Source: Perkinsus olseni
Taxonomy: Eukaryota
Direction: 5' to 3'
DNA length: 46,513 bases
Assembly: GCA_013115125.1 (NCBI GenBank)
Contig: JABANN010000259.1
Span: 1-46,513 of the forward strand
Shown here piece after piece: positions 12,047-44,584 of this stretch; positions within the stretch are counted from its first letter, which is position 1, and every line of letters starts with the position of its first letter. A program made the position numbers and the translations under genes. The notes under the pieces were generated by a model. That model saw nothing but the letters and a program-made list of their open reading frames with translations, ran no database searches and was not told where the DNA came from.

Positions 12047-14203
12047 CTACGCATCGAGCATCTCACAGTCGGCCTCGGACTCGGGTTCTTCCTTCACGAC
12101 CGGCAGCGCTCGCCACAGAGGAGCACCTCGCACTGGATGGCCCGAGCCTTCTCCGACCAGCAGATCGATAGTCCAACGCCCACTAGCCCTGATCACGAGC
12201 CGGCCTCCGGAAGGGCTGTCGGACTCCAGTTTCACCGGGAAGATCTCCGTCGGGGAGTGATTGTGGCTAACGCCGATCTCGACACGGGCGAACTTGTCCG
12301 TACCGGCGGAGGTAAGGACCAACGCTAGCAGGTCTACCTGGTGCATTCTGTACGTATCCATCTTGTCGGGCTTCCCGCGGTTCCACTTTACACCATCACT
12401 GTTGAACCCAACGGAATTCCGACAACCTTGTCTCTTACCCTGCTTGGCCCCGGGGTACTTCCTCCGGCACACGCAAGATGGAAGATCGCATTCGGTCAGA
12501 CCTATGCTGAGGTTCCCTTCGAGCTCCGCCAGCCTCAAGAGAATCTTCTGCGGCCCTACAGCCCGTCCTTGCGAGCGCTTGAGCGTGAACTCAGCACCGT
12601 GCCAAGCAAGAGGCTCCTGTTGATCGTGGTTTCCGCCGGAAGTAAGCTTCCACCCACGACTAGTTGAGTTCTCCTGGTAGTCCACAGTCTCATCCAGCCG
12701 AGAGAGGACCAGCTCATCGCGGCTGAGATCAGGAATACCCTCCAGGCTGCTGATGGTGGGAGTGTCGAGACGCGGAAGATACCGCGGTCGTACTTCGCGT
12801 GGTCGTGCCCTGTCGGCATCCGCCGCTGCATAACGACGAGCCACGCTCTCAGAGGAGCCTGCGAGACCCTCTAGTAGAGGATCGTCAACGTATGGAGCCC
12901 GGGATACCTCCAAGAAGCCCGAGCACTCATCCGTGGTGACGCTGACAAAGAAGGAGAAGGGTTTGTACGTGACCACCCCCGGCTCAAGTCTAATGGAGAC
13001 CTCCGTGCCGGGCTCGAGGACAACATCGCTCTGGGCCCCCGCGCTGGGGGATGAAATCAGAGCTGCTCGCCGACGGAGCTGAAAGAAATGCCAATAAACG
13101 CTCTCGAGCTTTCGAGAGAAGTCTGAAGCATCCTCACTCTACCAGAAGTGAGTGCACAGGAGAGAAGAATGTCGTGCCCAAACGAAGAACTCCGATGAGG
13201 AAGATGGAGAGATCTCACCTTAGCAGCCATGGCTGGAAGCCCTTCTGTGGTTCTTAAAGCCTCCTGAATCTCATCATTCTTCACCTGCCCGAGCTTCGCC
13301 GCCTGCGCAGGGCTCATCTTCATCAGTTCGAAGTGCTCCCGCACATACTGGACCCATCGAACCTTCATATCCTAAGGACATGGCGACAGGGAAGCTCTCG
13401 GCAGAGGGGGGTGAGGGGTAAGCTTGGTCGTATTTTACGAAGCACCACAATGACCGTAGACGACAAGGAAGGGAACCTACCTCATCAACAAGCCTTGGAA
13501 CCATCCGGGCGTCCTCCTTGACCATTATCACCTCGGGGTTATCGACCAACTTGACCCAGTCGGAGCTCTTTGGATTGCCCAAAGGAACACCGATGAGTAC
13601 GTCCTTCACGAAGGCGGCCATCATGTCCCTCAGAGAAGCGTTAAACTGGGACACAACCCCCTCCTCTTCGCCAGCCGGACCACGCTTTCCACTCTTACGG
13701 AGTCCTTCGAGCGACTTCCGAAAAGCAACCTTCACTGCTTTATCGCTGGACTTCACGATATGCTGTGCACCGTTACTGTCGAACCTCCTGAGCGTATTCC
13801 TCGTCAGCATGAAGACGGTGCCGTCAACGCAGGAGAACAGGAGATGGTAATGCCTGGTTTTGCCGTGCTTCCGTGCGATGGCTTTGGTTATCCCACCATG
13901 CCCGAGGAGCTCCTCCCGCCACTCATGATTGGCCACGAAGATTCGCCAGTCGAAGCCGCCAGGGCTGCTTGGCAGTGGCAGCTCGATCTCCAACGGAGCA
14001 GCCGCTGCATCCTCAATCGCGCCATTTATCGCCTTGCGGCACTGTTCCCAGCTCGGAACTTGGTTCCACGGGCGGAGATACTTCGTGTAGCTTGCGGAAG
14101 GGTGACTGTCAGGAGCGAGGAGGATGGAAGGATCGTGCGGGGGCTGAACCATTGCTGGGGACATAAGGAACTGGCAGAGGAGAATCATCTCAGGTGATGG
14201 CAC
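12047..14203 (-). CDS. Hypothetical protein with C-terminal SPRY/B30.2-like domain, multi-exon
   Basis: Two 309-aa ORFs (13274-14203, 12047-12976) are joined through short exons. The C-terminal part (LSIGLTECDL...KYPG...NSVGFNSDGVKW...YRMHQVDLLALVL) follows the SPRY IGL/PG/SxG/GK/DxIG pattern. The start codon is uncertain (ATG at 14238, 14231 or 14188). Confidence 0.55.
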
Positions 14204-14569
14204 TTGTGCAGTTCAGGATGAGAGTTACCATATTTCATAGCGTGACGGCGACTGACTGGAGCGCCTTCGCCTTCGCATTTTACTTGTCACGATCGAAGGC
14301 TTCTGGGTTCCAGGGAGACCAGCACAGATCGATACGCAGCCAACAGTCGAATAGAGACGAGGCTGCCCACCTAAGTTGGACTATCCCGTCTCCAGCTCCT
14401 CCGCCGATAGTCTGGCATCACTGATACAATTCACGTGCCGCTAGACTACTTGAGATCCTCTCGAAACACTGTTGGCCCCTACCACACGCATGAACAGCGG
14501 TTAGGATGCCAGAGTCGAGTTGCTAACATTCTGGCTGGTCGGATTCACAATCAAGCGGGATTTTTTAAA

Positions 14570-15310
14570 GGGGACCGCCCATCGCGGATCGCCCATTCAG
14601 TGAGTACCAATGCATGCATCAGTTTCATCCACGGCTGTGCGGTGAATGAGCCTCGACTGCGTGTGAAGGTGTAGCCATAGAGCAAGCTCTAGGACGAACT
14701 CGAGTGAACACGCCACGCACGGGAATGGGAAACGGTCGGGCGATCGAGCGAGCACGGGGTCGTGGGTGCTGCCGTGGCTTGGCCTTCCCCCTGCCGCTGG
14801 TTGGACGACACTCTGATATTAGACCCAGTTAAGGGACAGTTCGAAAAGGTCACCCATCTTCCGTCTTTATTTTTTCCCTTAGTGTTGGAGAGGGCGTTCA
14901 CTCCGGTGTGGGGAGTATGGTCGTCTAGCGGTAGGCGACCAGGGGCCTTAGCCATCGGTGGCGGAGGCTAGGACGTACGCCAAGGCGGCGACACTTCGGG
15001 TCAAACAAGTGTGGCGTCGCCTGGGTTGGCGTGATGGGCACCGGAGATGAACGCGTCAGCTCAGCGGTGGAAGCGAAGGAGCTTACCGCTGGCTGACCAA
15101 TTCCCGATACCTCCCAACTCTAGGATAGCGGGTGTAAGGGTCACGAGAGGAGGAGTTGAACAATACCCTAGCGACTCGCGTCGACAGCTCCTGTCGAGTG
15201 CGGGACACCGTGCTGCGCAACCCATGACCGTTTCAGCACGCTGATCGTGACGCGTGCAACCAACTGGGAACATCGGAAGCCGGTTCACGAGGAACCAATC
15301 CTTGACCTCA
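14570..15310 (+). ncRNA. Candidate large structured non-coding RNA of unknown family
   Basis: More than ten mutually compatible nested helices found by eye, e.g. 14894-14908/15039-15054, 14729-14737/15226-15234, 14977-14996/15007-15032, 15055-15074/15081-15097. Imperfect pairs are mostly G-U on the + strand. No credible spliced coding gene. Ends are approximate. Confidence 0.6.
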
Positions 15311-15343
15311 AGCGAACGAAAGGTACTGAAGAAGACACAACAC

Positions 15344-15348
15344 AAAAA
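15344..15348 (-). terminator. Pol III oligo-T terminator of tRNA-Ile
   Basis: TTTTT on the minus strand immediately after the discriminator base. Confidence 0.85.
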
Positions 15349-15422
15349 TGGTCGATGCAGGGCTCGAACCTGCGACCCTCGCGTTATTAGCACGATGCTC
15401 TAACCGACTGAGCTAAACGACC
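15349..15422 (-). tRNA. tRNA-Ile (anticodon AAT), intronless
   Basis: The reverse complement GGTCGTTTAGCTCAGTCGGTTAGAGCATCGTGCTAATAACGCGAGGGTCGCAGGTTCGAGCCCTGCATCGACCA folds as a cloverleaf with A-box, B-box (GGTTCGAGCC) and AAT anticodon. Confidence 0.97.
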
Positions 15423-15885
15423 GATGATGCTAGAAGCAATATGATAGATTTCACCCCACGAATGCCGCAGCCCAGAAATCAAGAGACTGTATCTCATCTT
15501 TGCTCGAGAGGGAAGTCTACAGGCGGGATCTAATACGCAACAGTCAGACGCACCGAACTACCGTTCCTTTTCCGGCCAGCACCTACTAGAATACAGACAG
15601 TGAGGTCACTCGACTAGGCGTGGAGCGCGCCCCCCGGCGAAGACGGGAGCCCGTCGACATTTTTCACTCGCGCGCGCCGCTGCACGCGTGCGGGCCGAGC
15701 TCGAAAATCTTGTACGTTGCCTTGAAGCCAGGCTGGCAAGTTAATGTGATATGCTCAACCGAGCTACTTACAGGACTCGTAGTGGAGAATCCCTACGGAC
15801 CCCATCCTCGCTGAACCAACCGAGAATTGCATACTGAGCACAGATACATAAGTACATTAACAAACAGCTTTAACAGGACAAGTCA

Positions 15886-17404
15886 TCATTTACGAGAATA
15901 GATATCAACTGCCTTCCGCAAAGTTCCGTAGGAGGGCCGGAAAGGAATTTCGCCGCCACTTGTCCGTACCCGAGGCGTCAGTTGCCGGTGTCCACCTTTC
16001 GGTTGCGCTCCGTACACCTTTGAGCTGCCCAAGGCAGCGGCAACCGGTAATTCAGGGATGACGGGCAGCTTTCGTTCAGCCAGCGGCGTCTCGTGCGCCG
16101 CTGAGTACTTCACCAACGCACCGATCTTCGACACACCGGCGGAAACCTGCTAACGAGCCAGTCAAACTTCGGCGGAGGAGCAACTTTTTCAACTCGACCA
16201 ACCGGGGGGATCGGTTCAGTGCCGAAGCGTTAGCTCTGCAACTAACACCACTAATCAATGCCTCCCTAAGGGTCAGTGTTTACCCCGATCCGACACACCT
16301 GTTTCAGTCTCGCAGTCGTCGAATCCAAATTCTTATTCGCAGCAATGAGTTTCCGCCGCAGATCTCCCGATCGACGTTTCTCTTCTCGCAGCTCTGTGCG
16401 CATTCGTTCCAGCTCACTACGCAGGAGAGCGTTGTCGTGTCTCAAATTTGATATAGTTGAATCTTGGGCGGACACCTGATTCGAATAAGCATGCTTGCAG
16501 CTTCGTAAGCGCCAGTGCAGAATAATTTAAACCTGCGCGATCTACCTCTATATATGCAGGAGAAAAACGCGACCTGCAGACTCCTAGAATATTCCTCTCA
16601 CCCGGGCATCCGCTTCTGTGAGTTTCCGCTGGAGGTAATAGACGTTGCTGCTCATGCCAGCCACTAGACGAGGCCGACGAGCTGAGTCAACTTTTACGTG
16701 GCGCTCCCGAGGCCTGTCGCCACGTGCAGCCGGGCACCTCGCGGATCCGATTCTCGTTACCTGGCATGAACAAATTCCAGAATACTCGAAGGTCTGTGCA
16801 CTTCGTTGGATCAGCTACTGTGCAACTGAATCTTAGTTCTTCACTCTCAGAAACATCATAGGACCGGTAAGGCTCTCTGGCCGCCACCTCACCTCGGTCG
16901 ATATTCGCTCGACATCATGGGCCAATTTCGACAAGATATCCAAGTCATCCGTGAGCTTTTGCTGAGCTCTGGCTGGGTCCCCACTCTCAGCCGGCGAGAG
17001 TTCCGGTGTGTCAGCGTTAGGCTCAGGCGATTCTCCAGTATTGCCAACCTCCACAGCATCGGATTCTGCCTCCGGAGACGCCTCTCCGTCACTCTTCACT
17101 AGCGGACTTCCCGCCCCTCCTGATCAGCACCAACTTAGTCAAGGAGGAGCCGCTAGGGACGCAGATTGCAATCTTCTGGGCGCCTCACCGCCAAAGACAC
17201 GCCACGTTCCCCATCCGTATCACCCGTTATGGAGCGCACTGTGACAACATCACTCTTAGGGTCCGGCCTAAGGGACACCTGAATAGGTGCGCTGCGTTTA
17301 GTCGGACTGGAGACCCCTCCCGGGGGGTTTTCTTGAGCGGATGACGATGGTGGCGAGTCGTTTGACGGGGGTCCCACAGATTTTGCAGGAGAGCAGTTGG
17401 ACAT
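15886..17404 (-). CDS. Hypothetical Ser/Pro-rich protein with coiled coil, multi-exon
   Basis: MSNCSPAKSVGPPS... at 17404. Coiled-coil exon SAQDSTISNLRHDNALLRSELERMRTELREEKRR... Last exon ...YGTLRKAVDIYSRK* ends at 15886. Confidence 0.55.
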
Positions 17405-17907: not shown

Positions 17908-19375
17908 CTAAGCCAGAGGCAGGAAGGGCCCCCCTGTAGGGACATCAGCACCTCGACCTCGTCCAGAGCGGGATGCCTGAGGGACTGGTCGCCGCCACCC
18001 CTGTATACAACCTCCCAGACAAACGTAGTGAAATGCTCGAGACGTCGTGCTGGCGATGTAGGATGCCAACTTCCGTGGCGACCGACGCGCCTTTGGAACT
18101 GCTCGGTGACGCGCGGCTTCTGAAGCCGGCAGAGCGCTTGACCGCCGTCTGGAAGCTAGCAAAAGATAATCCGTACCATAGTCGGACACATGAGATCGAG
18201 CCGAGTAGAAGGCGATATCTCCCCAAGTGGAGCCACGAGACCGAGCTCGGTAGGTGGTGACAGGAGGATACCCTGTTTGAATGACCGACTCCCACCACGG
18301 TGACAGGCACTTGTTCGCAATGAGCATGTCAAAGTAATACTCATTCGTCACCATATCCTTCATCACTATATGAACCGGCTGTGGACCAATAATCCGACTC
18401 AGGCTAGTGCCCGATGCTCCCAAAACTTTCCGGACGTCCCAAGTCGCAAAGTCACAGTACATAGAATAGTAACAGAAAGTATAAACCTTGCCAGGACTAA
18501 AGACATGATCTCGCGGTACCTTCCCTAGGAGGTCGGACCTCTGGCAGATATCCGGTGTATCAGGGTCACCAGGCTCATTACAGAGGATAGTGTCAGCGCA
18601 GTACATAGGGAAGAGGAAATGGAACTTATCTTGCGACGTTCCGTTCTCATCGACAGGAAGCGTCGAGTCCCCATCGTAATTACAATCTAGCGGATAGCCC
18701 TTGACTCCGCTTATACGTATTGCAACCGAAAGCATAATACGTACCACAGTCTTCGTAGCAAAGCCAAACTCAGGCAAGTCGTAGTCGACTTCGGCACCGA
18801 ACTGGACGGTGGGGGGCAGCCGTTGCTTGAACATGCCTTGCCACCGAAACTCCCATCGTCTGAAAGAACCCTGCAATCACAGCATTTCGACCGACGGAGC
18901 GGCGCGAGACAGAACATGAAAATGAACCTGTCAGATCGATATACCGCAAAACAGTCGGACCGGAGAACCCTGGATCTTTGGTATTACACGAACGAACTAT
19001 TTCAAAGAGACTAAGCAAGAAAGCCACGCCTTCCACAGTTAAACCCTGACCGACCGTCGCCCGGGCGTCGATTGACCCCCTCCGTTACTACCGTTGTTTC
19101 GGAGCCAAGTACGCCTCGTACGGCGAAGTCATGCTCTCGTCGACCGTTTTATGCATCACAACCGCAGTGCCGACGAAAAAATCATTCTCAATCTTGGTCG
19201 GCTGCGGATCATTAGAGAATATCCGACTCTTGTCGGACACCAGTCGCGGGTCCTTTGCCTTATGCAGGTCGTAGACCCCGAAGTAGTTGTCCAACGAGTC
19301 CGGTGCCTCCTCCGTTGGTGCTACTGACAGGGACTTGTAGACCGGAGTCGGGGACGGTGAGATGGATGAGTACAT
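17908..19375 (-). CDS. DUF1769-domain protein, paralogue A (exons 19375-19092, 18859-17908)
   Basis: KIENDFFVGTAVVMHK...YLAPKQR|RWEFRWQGMFK...VQFGAEVD...FSPGKVYTFCYYSMYCDFATWDV matches my recollection of DUF1769 motifs. A phase-2 GT-AG intron restores the frame. Confidence 0.8.
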
Positions 19376-23407: not shown

Positions 23408-24654
23408 ATGACTCAGCCCGTCATCCAGGATTCACCGCGCATGAAGAATGAGGATGGCATTAAGGTCGACCCTCGCAGCACGTTCGACTACTACGGTGCA
23501 TGCTACGATGTATCGTCGGACGGGAAAATACGAGAATGTCGACGACTCACGGTGAACTCAGCAGAGTATTACGCTCGAGTCGCCTACAAATCCCGTGAGA
23601 ACGATTCCTCAGACCCATGCCCATCGAGACTGAGTGGTTCAAAGGCCACATAATGGTCATGCACAAGCCCCCAGGTCCGGATGGCACGCCCTTCCGGTAT
23701 CTAGACTATCTGGGATCCAAGCGCAGGTGAGTTGCTTGTACCAGCCCGACGGGATGACCATTCTCTTCCAGGCGCTGGGAGATGCGGTGGCAAGGCCGGT
23801 TCAAAAAGGAAGTCCCTTCCGACTTGCGGTTCGGCCTCGAAGTCGATAACGATCCGCCGGAGCTCGGCTTTGCAACACGCACGCTGGTGCGAATCCTCTT
23901 CAAAGTTGCTTCGCGACTGGCTGAGGCCCGAGGGTCTCATTTGTACTGCAATTATGGAAGCCAGCGGCACAGCGATCATGGTGCTACGTACTTCATGTTT
24001 CCACTACAGTCCGCGGATACGGTCTTGGAGCACGACCTCGACGACCCGACTATCCCGGCTATCTGCACGAACGAGAACTTGAAAGGGACAGTGCCAATTA
24101 AGCACAAGTTTAGAACTGATAAAGTGTACACGTTCTGTTACTATTCTATGTACTGCGATTTTGTCACTTGGGATATCCGAAACGTCTTCGGCGTATCCGG
24201 CACTTGTTTGAAGTCTATGCTCGGTCCCCAGCCATTCCGCATTGCCCTGAAGGATCCTGTCAGAAACGAGTATTACATGAACATGCTCCTAGCGCATAGA
24301 ACCCTGACTCGAGAGTGGGCGGCGCATTTCGAGAGCCAGGACCAGGAAGAGCTGCAGAGGGAGCATAGTGTTGCAAGCTTCTACTCCGCAGTCAGCGGCA
24401 ACGAGAGCCCCAGTGCTTCCAATGCACACACGGTGAGTTCACCTGTGAGCTGCACGAAGAGGTCAATAAGATCGCGTATTTGGCAGTGGGTGTTCGTGCC
24501 TTGTATTGCTTCACGGAAACGACTTGCAGAGCAGAGCTCTCGTGCATGCCAAGAGATTGTTATTAGCTCATTACCACCACCTACCGTCAGCAGGCAGCCT
24601 ACGAACAAGAGGCAACGGCGCCGACAGCTTGCTCGACCTGGGCAAAGATTCTGA
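23408..24654 (+). CDS. DUF1769-domain protein, paralogue B (two short introns, second at 23727-23771)
   Basis: PIETEWFKGHIMVMHK...YLGSKRR|RWEMRWQGRFK...LRFGLEVD...KVYTFCYYSMYCDFVTWDI. Colinear with paralogue A. Confidence 0.8.
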
Positions 24655-41559: not shown

Positions 41560-44500
41560 ATGGCGTCTGTGGGACATGACCCCTTCGACCCAGAGGTTAT
41601 GAAAGAGTTGAAGAAGGACATAACTCACGAGGAGGTGCCCCTTTGTGTCATCTAGGCCATCATTCTGTCGAACAGATTTTGTGTTTAGGTCAGCCAACTA
41701 ACGCGAGCCATGAAAAGGCCGGAGTTCAAGGAGCATTTCCAGGAATACATCGACGAGATATCCGACCCCAAAAACAAGAAGGTAATTGAAGGCTTTCCCC
41801 CAGCGCAGTGAGAGCGCTTTGCGGCGCATGGATATGGTTCAGGAGTATGAGCAGTACTTGAAACAGCTCGAGGATGCCGGGGAGATGCCGAAAGGCAAAG
41901 TCTTGCTCAGATGCAAACCAGGTAGTGAATTCTCGTTGTTGAGAGATGGACTCGATGCCTCAGGCATCTGTGTGAAGACGTCGATAAGGTTCCAATCGGG
42001 GCAGGTGCAGAAGCTATTCCTCAACATATGCCACACAGATAAGCTTGGTGACGTGCAGTTCAAGAAGCAGGAAGTCAAGGCACATGAGAAGTAGCCAAGC
42101 CCGCTAGTCGGATCGCGATGGACTCAGTTCGGCACGCCTTCAGCCCTGAAGCTGCCGGGCGAACGCCAGGGTATGCAGTGTCATTGCCCTACTCGGCCTC
42201 GCCCCCAAGGCCCGATAAGGATAAAAAGGATCATCTCTGCATGGTGTCCGACGTAGCCGTCAGCCAGGTGCCTCACAGTTGGCCATGTACTAACAGATGA
42301 GAATAGTTGGCTCGGTTGTTTCCAGCGCACCTTCGTCCAAGCCGTGCAGAACGAAGCTTTACTCAAGCTCGTGGTGGACACCGTTTGCGAAGCCATTACA
42401 GCTTCCTGCCTGAAGGGAGGCGAGACAGTATCTCGGGACTTCAAAGTAGCGTTCTGTTCCGGATGGCTATGAGGAGGGAGCCTTGAGTAGGTACTGCAGA
42501 AGATGCGGTGTAAGGGCGGCACGCCAATGCCTATGAGCATCAGTGAGGATATGCTGCTCACTATGAAGAAGGGCCGCCAGAACGCCAAAAAGAAAGTATA
42601 CCTGAGATTGGACAGTGGTGTTTGTATAACGCGCTAGGTTGAGGGAATGACGCCTGCGGAGTTGCGCAAGATGCAGAAGAGGGCGAAGAGGGAACGGGAC
42701 GAGGGAAAGGCGAATGATGAAGAGCAGCAGTCGGCAGCGAGTCCCGTGGCCGATGAGAACCAGGTAGAGTAGTTCATTGGCCACATGGAGTTCGCTCTCG
42801 CCTGGATCACCGTCTATTCGATTCGCTCCGTCTTCTCTGGCCTTTACGCACCCTGTCGCCCTCCCTAGGAAGCTGACGAGAACAACATATTCGGCTCCTC
42901 CGCGGAAGCAGATGCATCGTCTGGGCTCCTACTGCAACCCAAGTTCAAGATAGTGGAAGTCGGGCAGCTGCGAGACCTCTCAAGTTTCGTGGACTCCTCG
43001 GCTGGTACTGAACCTTTCCGCCGCTTGACCTACTGTACACCCCGCTACAAAGTCTTAGGCTAAGAATTTGTGGAGGGGTGTAGATGGTCCCAATGGAAGC
43101 TGTTGACACGTGGTGGCTGCCATTGTCGACCGGTCGATCTTAGTGGAGAGCCTGTTTCTGTCTTTACTCTCCCAGGTCATGCGTCCGCTCCATCCGTCCA
43201 CTGGACTGTCCCCGAAAATATTCGCTTGGAAGTGGAGCTTCCTGGAGTGAAGCACAGCAACGAAATCGACGTTGATACCGCAGGAGTCGCTGGTGGTGTG
43301 ATCGTGCAGACTAAGAGGTGAGAGGTACGCCATATCGAGGCCTGCTGCGAGGAGATGTAGATGTGCGTGGCCGGCAATGCCGATACGGATAAGGTCCCTC
43401 TTATTGGATCTAGCGACAGGAATACGGGGTTTTTCTTACCTCAGATGGAATGTCGTTAATACGGCAGATAATCGTCCATCCCTGCTTTCTATCGTTCTGC
43501 TCAGCCGTCTGTGTTGAAAACTTCTTTGTTGTACCTCGCAGTCGTTCGAGTTACTTGGCGGTGGCAAGTTCTTTGTAGGCCGGAAGCGGTTGCCTTAGAG
43601 CTCTCCACAATTGTCCCCATTCGCACGTACGATGAGATGACCGTGGGGTGAGACTGTTTTAGGTACTACTTGGATATCGCTCTCCCCTATGTCGTGGACA
43701 GTGACAAAGCCGTAGCACGGTTCGACAAGAGGCTCCACAGGCTTTCAATAACCTATCCTGTTACAGGTAGGATGGATCTCGGTGGCTGTGGAACATCACT
43801 TGATAGACGACTTTGTCTTGGTGCGGCAGGCCGGAAAGTTCGTGAGAGTGCGGAAGGGATGGATGTCGTGCCCGTTGTATCGCAAGAGAACGACGGCGGT
43901 GCGGTCGACGATACTACAAAGTTAAATTCAGCAGACGCTGGAGCTGCGGTGGAGGAGCACAAGACTGAGGTGGAATGTGCAGATGACAAAGTTGAAGATG
44001 ACGGGGTACGGGCGAGTACAGACGTAGCCGATTCTTCCAACCAGTGCAGCAAAGGTCACCCTCACGACATGAGCAGTTCAACTGAGGGTGCAGTAGAAGG
44101 TTCCGAGAAGAGCTCGTCGGTCGTAGAACTCGGATTTGAGACTATCTCACAACGGAGCCAGGATATAGAGGAAGATGATGGCGACTTTATGGCTAGTGAT
44201 ACATTCGAGGGCCCCCGTGTTGGATACTATTTCGGGATGGGCGACGAGGGACTTGGCTACTACAAGGACAGTGAGGCAGCGTGTACCAAGCAGGAATCTG
44301 AAACGCTGGAGAGGAGCGGCGATGAGGGAGCTGGCTTGTATGGAGATGGCCAAGGTTGTGAACCGCTGGAGGGATCGGTGATCAGTGAAGCCAGGGCCCG
44401 AGCACCTGAGCCACTGGTCATCGCTGAATCCACCAGCGTTCCGGTCGGGAATTCGGAGAAGGCAGAGTCGCGAGGCGAAGCAGATTCTTCTCAGCAGGCG

Positions 44501-44584
44501 GAGGATAATGGAGTAGATCCCGCAGCCGCCCTGCTTGGTCAAAGTGTGCGGCTGGAGTCCTCCCTCCCCTGGATTCTCTTGTAA
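41560..44584 (+). CDS. DNAAF2: Kintoun / PF13, PIH1-domain dynein axonemal assembly factor, multi-exon
   Basis: LTRAMKRPEFKEHFQEYIDEISDPKNKK|EYEQYLKQLE, KPGICVKT, KLFLNICH, SLPYSASPPRPDKDK, KMRCKG. The CS-like end YYLDIALPYVVDSDKAVARFDKRLHRLSITYPV is followed by an acidic tail. Confidence 0.9.

Follow-up and report, generated by a model that had tools for sequence, protein, structure and literature searches.

The region described here lies in a 46,513-nt stretch of Perkinsus olseni DNA (the window, by which we mean the whole stretch analysed), between two spliced genes on the minus strand. The first of these, at 13000-14388, has introns of 140 nt (13079-13218) and 109 nt (13371-13479) with GT..AG ends on that strand. 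Its contig ends at 14172 with seven unaligned letters that may come from a trans-spliced leader; another contig, of low depth, covers 14229-14388, and the 312-residue frame of the gene has no Pfam match. The second gene, at 15721-16476, has a 152-nt intron, and its contigs become unlike the window after 16476, where another intron or a variant may lie. Between the two genes are found a tRNA-Ile gene and a non-coding repeat unit some 500 nt long, which is transcribed, exists in few copies, has a core of clustered hairpins and matches no known family (Table 1).

Table 1. Features of the repeat unit and its tRNA neighbour; z-scores compare predicted folds with 100 dinucleotide shuffles
Feature	Position	Strand	Description
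Repeated transcribed non-coding unit	14657-15160		Contigs of X9, X10, X12, X13
Segment missing from copy (b)	14736-14936		201 nt; X10 record 4, X12 record 8
Pyrimidine tract ending in AG	14853-14882	+	Putative 3' splice site or trans-splice acceptor
Four-way junction	14894-15054		Predicted fold; z -5.5 (+), -7.1 (-)
Closing stem	14894-14909 with 15038-15054		Predicted fold; 16 bp, A15047 bulged
Hairpin 14918-41	14918-14941		10 bp; loop GCGG; inside closing stem
Hairpin 14944-69	14944-14969		10 bp; A/G 1x1 loop; loop UCGG; inside closing stem
Hairpin 14974-15036	14974-15036		23 bp; three G-rich bulges on 3' side; inside closing stem
Hairpin 15055-97	15055-15097		17 bp; directly 3' of junction; z -5.8 (+), -7.2 (-)
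tRNA-Ile(AAU)	15349-15422	-	ARAGORN; Rfam 64.7 bits; neighbour, not in unit

Contigs of four runs (X9, X10, X12 and X13) were aligned to 13000-16500. Those of X9, X10 and X12 skip the intron at 16145-16296, and those of X10 also skip both introns of the other gene; because the skipped introns have CT..AC ends, these three runs can be taken as RNA. Their contigs extend over 14657-15160, in agreement with the suggestion of an earlier note on this DNA that a structured non-coding element here is transcribed. Such contigs report that RNA is present, not its strand, its ends or its level. Three stretches, 14404-14637, 15223-15339 and 15457-15690, are uncovered in the four runs, which is no evidence of silence.

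The contigs over the unit are of at least three diverged kinds. Copy (a), represented by X9 record 14, is identical to the window over 14921-15027. Copy (b), found in X10 record 4 (669 nt) and in X12 record 8, matches 14663-14735 and 14937-15160 apart from nine differences and two small insertions. Between these parts is a gap of 201 nt, in which five other letters replace the window's sequence, and the flanks of the copy, 20 nt before 14663 and 341 nt after 15160, are unlike the window. Contigs of the third kind, (c), keep the 201 nt: X10 record 3 covers 14861-15140 with five differences and X9 record 13 covers 14657-14894 with nine. On the two neighbouring genes, X10 contigs show no difference from the window over 924 and 604 bases. 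Given this perfect agreement, copies (b) and (c) are probably other loci and not strain variants. Removal of the 201 nt as an intron fits poorly, with non-canonical TC..GC ends and the five filler letters, and since the same contig carries other differences and other flanks the gap is better read as belonging to a different locus. Within the segment concerned lie a T-rich tract, a predicted domain at 14811-90, the greater part of hairpin 14918-41 and the 5' arm of the closing stem; copy (b) therefore lacks that domain, that arm and most of that hairpin. The number of copies, being drawn from transcript contigs, is a lower bound.

Likeness to the other copies begins at 14657-14663 and stops at 15160. 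Compared with the window, contigs have a loose end at 15160 in all four runs, and in X10 also at 14663. The repeated and transcribed extent is thus about 14657-15160 and not 14570-15310, as had been drawn before. No further copy occurs within the 46.5-kb window. A 20-mer of the core found a single metagenomic locus (L001), which has no more in common with the window than these 20 letters and must be a chance match, and a 21-mer found no match among viral sequences. A search of sequencing runs listed no RNA run as holding the unit, and the small shares that it gave for oyster and crustacean metagenome runs carry no weight. No description of such an element came up in the literature searched, which included PMC5028923 and PMC9399869.

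The earlier note had proposed a multi-branched RNA of about 740 nt, spanning 14570-15310 and closed by long-range helices. Every helix that it named does exist in the sequence, and the long-range pairs 14729-37/15226-34 (9 bp) and 14751-61/15204-14 are among the computed inverted repeats. The full stretch also folds slightly better than its shuffles: on the plus strand the 741 nt reach -310.3 kcal/mol against -289.3 +/- 7.4 (z -2.86, 20 shuffles), and on the minus strand -286.5 kcal/mol against -266.1 +/- 5.7 (z -3.60, 20 shuffles). This excess, however, comes wholly from the 204-nt core at 14894-15097, the only segment of 14570-15310 that beats shuffles in fold stability. When the remaining pieces were each compared with 100 dinucleotide shuffles, 14570-14662, 14663-14735, 14736-14893, 14736-14936, 15098-15160 and 15161-15310 gave z-scores from -1.04 to +1.33 on both strands, the segment absent from copy (b) having z +1.3 and 0.0. 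The 5' hairpins, the 14811-90 domain and the 3' part are accordingly no more stable than shuffled sequence.

Inverted-repeat counts lead to the same view of the long-range helices. In the 741 nt there is one perfect inverted 9-mer where 1.2 are expected; perfect inverted 7-mers number 30 against 19.7 expected, a count reached by 5% of shuffles, and 6-mers 94 against 76.7. With counts so near expectation, the long-range helices are at chance level. Moreover, their 3' partners are found at 15208-15288, past the point (15160) from which the other copy is unrelated, and this natural copy, lacking 14736-14936, also lacks AGCACGG at 14751-57 and the end of GAAACGGTC. Comparison with shuffles on both strands thus upholds the core and gives no support to the outer parts, which fall outside the repeated and RNA-covered unit, and we consider the 740-nt architecture improbable in the extreme. 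It illustrates how an architecture drawn by hand can rest on some 200 nt of real signal joined to chance helices.

The signal in the core itself is strong. For 14890-15100 the z-score is -7.86 on the plus strand and -8.38 on the minus strand, and none of 200 shuffles is as good. When 1158 windows of 210 nt were ranked over the 46.5 kb and the eight next-ranked were re-tested against shuffles, these gave z +0.5 to -3.6. The best fold of the eight, 241-450 on the plus strand, has z -3.6, and -0.6 on the minus strand. The predicted core fold, a four-way junction followed directly by a hairpin, has 77 pairs on the plus strand and 68 on the minus strand, 65 of them common to both.

Which strand carries the RNA? 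Imperfect pairs had been described as mostly G-U on the plus strand, and as a sign of selection on a plus-strand RNA. Taken literally the description is right, with seven G-U pairs among the 77 on the plus strand and none among the 68 on the minus strand. As an argument for selection it is weak, because the core has far more G than C on its plus strand (84 G, 51 C): in shuffles of the core 72% of G-U pairs fall on the plus strand, so that an asymmetry with p ~0.008 against a 50:50 null has p ~0.10 against a composition-matched one. The plus strand is favoured by a slight lean.

The differences between copies provide a second test of the fold. Those listed were checked against the minimum-energy fold of 14657-15160, in which four of the 20 distinct variant places are unpaired and 16 paired. 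Among the latter, seven keep their pair, all through G-U, and nine break it; within the core four keep the pair, four break it and one is in a loop. Transitions would keep a pair about half the time in the absence of selection, and transversions never, so that pairs appear to survive the copy differences at a rate not above that expected of neutral change. The pattern in copy (b) is more favourable. At 14975 a G-U pair becomes A-U, and the change at 14997 affects a loop position. The two neighbouring changes at 14968/14969 would, as judged by eye, allow hairpin 14944-69 to rebuild its outer helix with a register shift of one base; all four changes within hairpins 14944-15036 are thus harmless to the fold. 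Copy (b) has no change in hairpin 15055-97, and four listed changes in the 63-nt tail at 15098-15160. These numbers are too small to call selection.

Such observations bear on the possibility that the unit is a cellular RNA gene, namely a member of a new lineage-specific ncRNA family, transcribed from the plus strand by RNA polymerase II, whose junction and hairpins scaffold a ribonucleoprotein and whose other copies are duplicates or pseudogenes. The core z-score of about -8 on both strands agrees with this, as do transcription without coding signal, the placing of all seven wobble pairs on the plus strand, and the compatibility with the fold of all four changes of copy (b) in 14944-15036, with none in 15055-97. 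The contig of X9 record 13 passes the T6 run (noted earlier, and present at 14870-75), which fits a transcript not made by polymerase III if its strand is plus. Against this, one of the expressed copies is missing half of hairpin 14918-41 together with the 5' arm of the closing stem, and another has three pair-breaking changes in the core, at 15015, 15043 and 15059. The seven of 16 paired variants that keep their pair are about what would be expected without selection, the G-U asymmetry weakens to p ~0.10 once G-richness is allowed for, and the 300 nt of the unit outside the core are unstructured. Helices of 16-23 near-perfect pairs are also unusual in old ncRNAs, which counts against a cellular ncRNA. 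Since a copy without half of the closing stem is expressed, a functional fold common to all copies is not needed. We therefore regard this explanation as possible, if on the unlikely side. The narrower proposal that the 204-nt core is a conserved module of a new lineage-specific RNA family, transcribed from the plus strand by polymerase II and serving as a ribonucleoprotein scaffold or as the precursor for an RNase III-type enzyme, seems to us fairly doubtful. If selection on an RNA fold were demonstrated for the core, a protist lineage in which, within the literature searched, few ncRNAs beyond the universal ones have been described would gain a structured ncRNA family.

Nothing indicates that the stretch encodes a protein. 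All six frames are full of stops, and nothing in Pfam matches the ten open reading frames (50-112 residues) at an E-value better than 0.06. Eight of the frames, two of them looked up again without the stop codon, are absent as exact entries from the protein collection searched, and a search among proteins of 35-112 residues gave no homologue for a 64-residue frame that overlies the core. A coding gene or exon was rejected on these grounds.

Could the unit belong, in strongly diverged form, to a known RNA class, such as RNase P or MRP RNA, telomerase RNA, SRP RNA, U3 or another snoRNA, or SL RNA? Its size range and multi-helix build would agree. A comparison with Rfam had been proposed as a check, and no family matches the element on either strand. 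At gathering thresholds the whole window gives tRNA alone; a cmscan search of 14300-15500 with 4227 Rfam families, on both strands and at E up to 10, adds one chance match, to RT-12 (19.3 bits against a gathering threshold of 44.2, E 1.5). None of the covariance models for RNase P, MRP, SRP, snRNAs, U3, telomerase RNAs, ribozymes or Y, vault and 7SK RNAs among the Rfam 15 families has a match here. For tRNA-like genes, ARAGORN and the Rfam tRNA model find 15349-15422 alone, and D-arm-like words at 14926-36 and 15057-74 stand outside any cloverleaf.

Nuclear RNase P and MRP RNAs, which the earlier note had put forward together with telomerase RNA, resemble the unit in their length of a few hundred nucleotides, in their many helices and in its position near a tRNA gene. 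By eye, two stretches, 14729-42 and 15097-15112, recall what we take to be the conserved P4 regions of RNase P. The first, however, needs an extra base and a mismatch to fit the consensus, and the second misses about four of its nine invariant positions. The unit differs further from these RNAs in having no Rfam match at E up to 10, and in being multi-copy, with one copy lacking a third of its sequence. In the case of telomerase RNA, no template for any of 11 common telomeric repeats, which may differ from the host's own repeat, was found on either strand of 14389-15348, a template being defined as a C-rich word of the repeat length plus 3 with at most one mismatch. With no Rfam match, no template for these 11 repeats and several invariant positions missed, neither of these readings finds support.

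The words GUGAUGG (15031-37) and CUGA (15093-96), flanked by GGUUGG and CCAAUU, are by eye presumably C-box-like and D-box-like, and C/D boxes with a 6-bp stem can be drawn at 15024-15102. This stem would have to form at the expense of the base of hairpin 14974-15036, and the would-be guide is locked within the 17-bp hairpin 15055-97. Resemblance to the spliced leader is seen in GTAGCCAT at 14671-78, just inside the 5' border of the unit, and in CCTTAGCCATC in hairpin 14944-69. Against the leader sequence given in PMC9399869, assumed to apply to this organism, these words have local scores of 16-17, where 21 is reached elsewhere in the window and peaks of 18-26 in five shuffles; they are at chance level, no GT donor follows them, and a relic spliced leader or SL RNA was rejected. 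With cmscan silent apart from tRNA and the chance RT-12 match, and with multiple copies, one bearing the 201-nt gap, a diverged known class is highly improbable and already close to refuted.

A different kind of explanation is that the unit forms part of a longer polymerase II transcript, the other copies being small segmental duplications. It could be a divergent ncRNA sharing a promoter region with the minus-strand gene whose contig ends at 14172, the outron of that gene (minus strand), or a UTR. Copy (b) does lie in a 669-nt RNA contig that reaches 341 nt past the unit, and the stretch separating the unit from the 5' end of the neighbouring gene holds the contig at 14229-14388. The pyrimidine tract with its AG is acceptor-like, and its pyrimidine run is longer than the tracts of three nearby introns. 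Splicing at AG 14881-82 from candidate donors at 14669, 14704 or 14735 is, however, not among the joints listed, and contigs run through the site; the sole listed joint that touches the unit is the 201-nt gap, with its non-canonical ends and filler letters. The likeness between copies is also confined to about 500 nt, with an abrupt end on either side, and the strong structure of the core would be left unexplained. A longer transcript of this kind is in our judgement unlikely.

What kind of element, then, is the unit? The unit has several diverged copies whose flanks are unrelated, is present in RNA assemblies, shows an excess of structure in its core, and has neither a coding signal nor a match to a known family. 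Our tentative preference, a real possibility without being probable outright, is for an unclassified non-autonomous repeat, mobile or retroposed, whose hairpins would be a recognised module, and not for a housekeeping RNA gene. Under this proposal 14657-15160 would be one copy of a small dispersed family of transcribed non-coding units, either an element that is mobile or retroposed or a remnant of such an element. The hairpin core may act as its functional module, offering a double-stranded handle to a copying or processing protein or to a nuclease. Of the alternatives raised in the earlier note, a novel ncRNA or an RNA-based non-autonomous element, the fallback comes close to this proposal, shorn of its 740-nt form. 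If correct, it would mark as a repeat a transcribed, low-copy, non-coding element that annotation might otherwise take for a gene or for a long non-coding RNA.

The proposal has evidence against it. Inspection by eye of the borders at 14657-14663 and 15160 found no target-site duplication, terminal inverted repeats, TG..CA ends or A-rich or simple-repeat tail; no hallmark of a transposon class is thus seen, and about three copies are in evidence. The fold-compatible changes of copy (b) and the seven G-U pairs on the plus strand, moreover, fit selection on an RNA fold, and these signs count against a repeat because an ordinary cellular ncRNA would show them too.

Comparison with known types of repeat shows partial likeness to two of them. 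Like SINEs and other retroposed repeats, the unit is short, non-coding and transcribed, with a structured RNA part, and its copies are diverged, with unrelated flanks and internal indels. It differs from them in having no convincing polymerase III A and B boxes, in the T6 run inside it, in the want of an A-rich or repeat tail or target-site duplication, and in the few copies in evidence. At 15057-67 there is what we take to be a partial A-box-like word. With no B box at the right distance by eye, and with the other features named, a SINE was rejected. MITEs and foldback elements, for their part, share with the unit small size, absence of coding capacity and long near-perfect inverted repeats that are equally stable on both strands. 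In the unit, however, the 16-bp inverted repeat (14894-909 with 15038-54) is in the middle and not terminal, and its limits are not those of the 201 nt by which the copies differ. A MITE or other terminal-inverted-repeat transposon was rejected since this repeat is internal and no duplication is present beside 14894/15054 or 14663/15160. Readings as an LTR, with TG..CA ends, or as the end of a Helitron do not fit by eye.

The neighbouring tRNA-Ile gene had been described as lying tail-to-tail with the element. The gene is indeed present on the minus strand, but its placement looks incidental, since copy (b) is unrelated to the window for 341 nt beyond 15160, none of it on the tRNA, and since other copies of the tRNA-Ile gene carry other flanks. 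The tRNA-Ile(AAU) at 15346-15422 is itself multi-copy, with contigs from other loci ending loosely at 15346, 15348 and 15422, and one of its flanks starts with a word that we take to be the typical start of 5S rRNA.

Finally, several features elsewhere in the window may be recorded. Open frames at 17908-18876 (minus strand) and 23758-24654 (plus strand) are paralogous and carry a Duc1 domain (PF08588; E 1.6e-19 and 9.3e-20), and a plus-strand frame at 43652-44584 has a weak PIH1 CS-like match (PF18201; E 4.5e-05; score 24.3 bits, cut-off 23.3). A near-perfect palindrome at 43036-43082, its 23-nt arms 87% complementary and separated by 1 nt, is longer than any other short-range inverted repeat reported in the window. 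A plus-strand word, AGCGGT, that resembles a tRNA D-arm or A-box word is found near 14496, 14928 and 15063; the complement, ACCGCT, or a close variant of it stands at 14437, 14794 and 15085.
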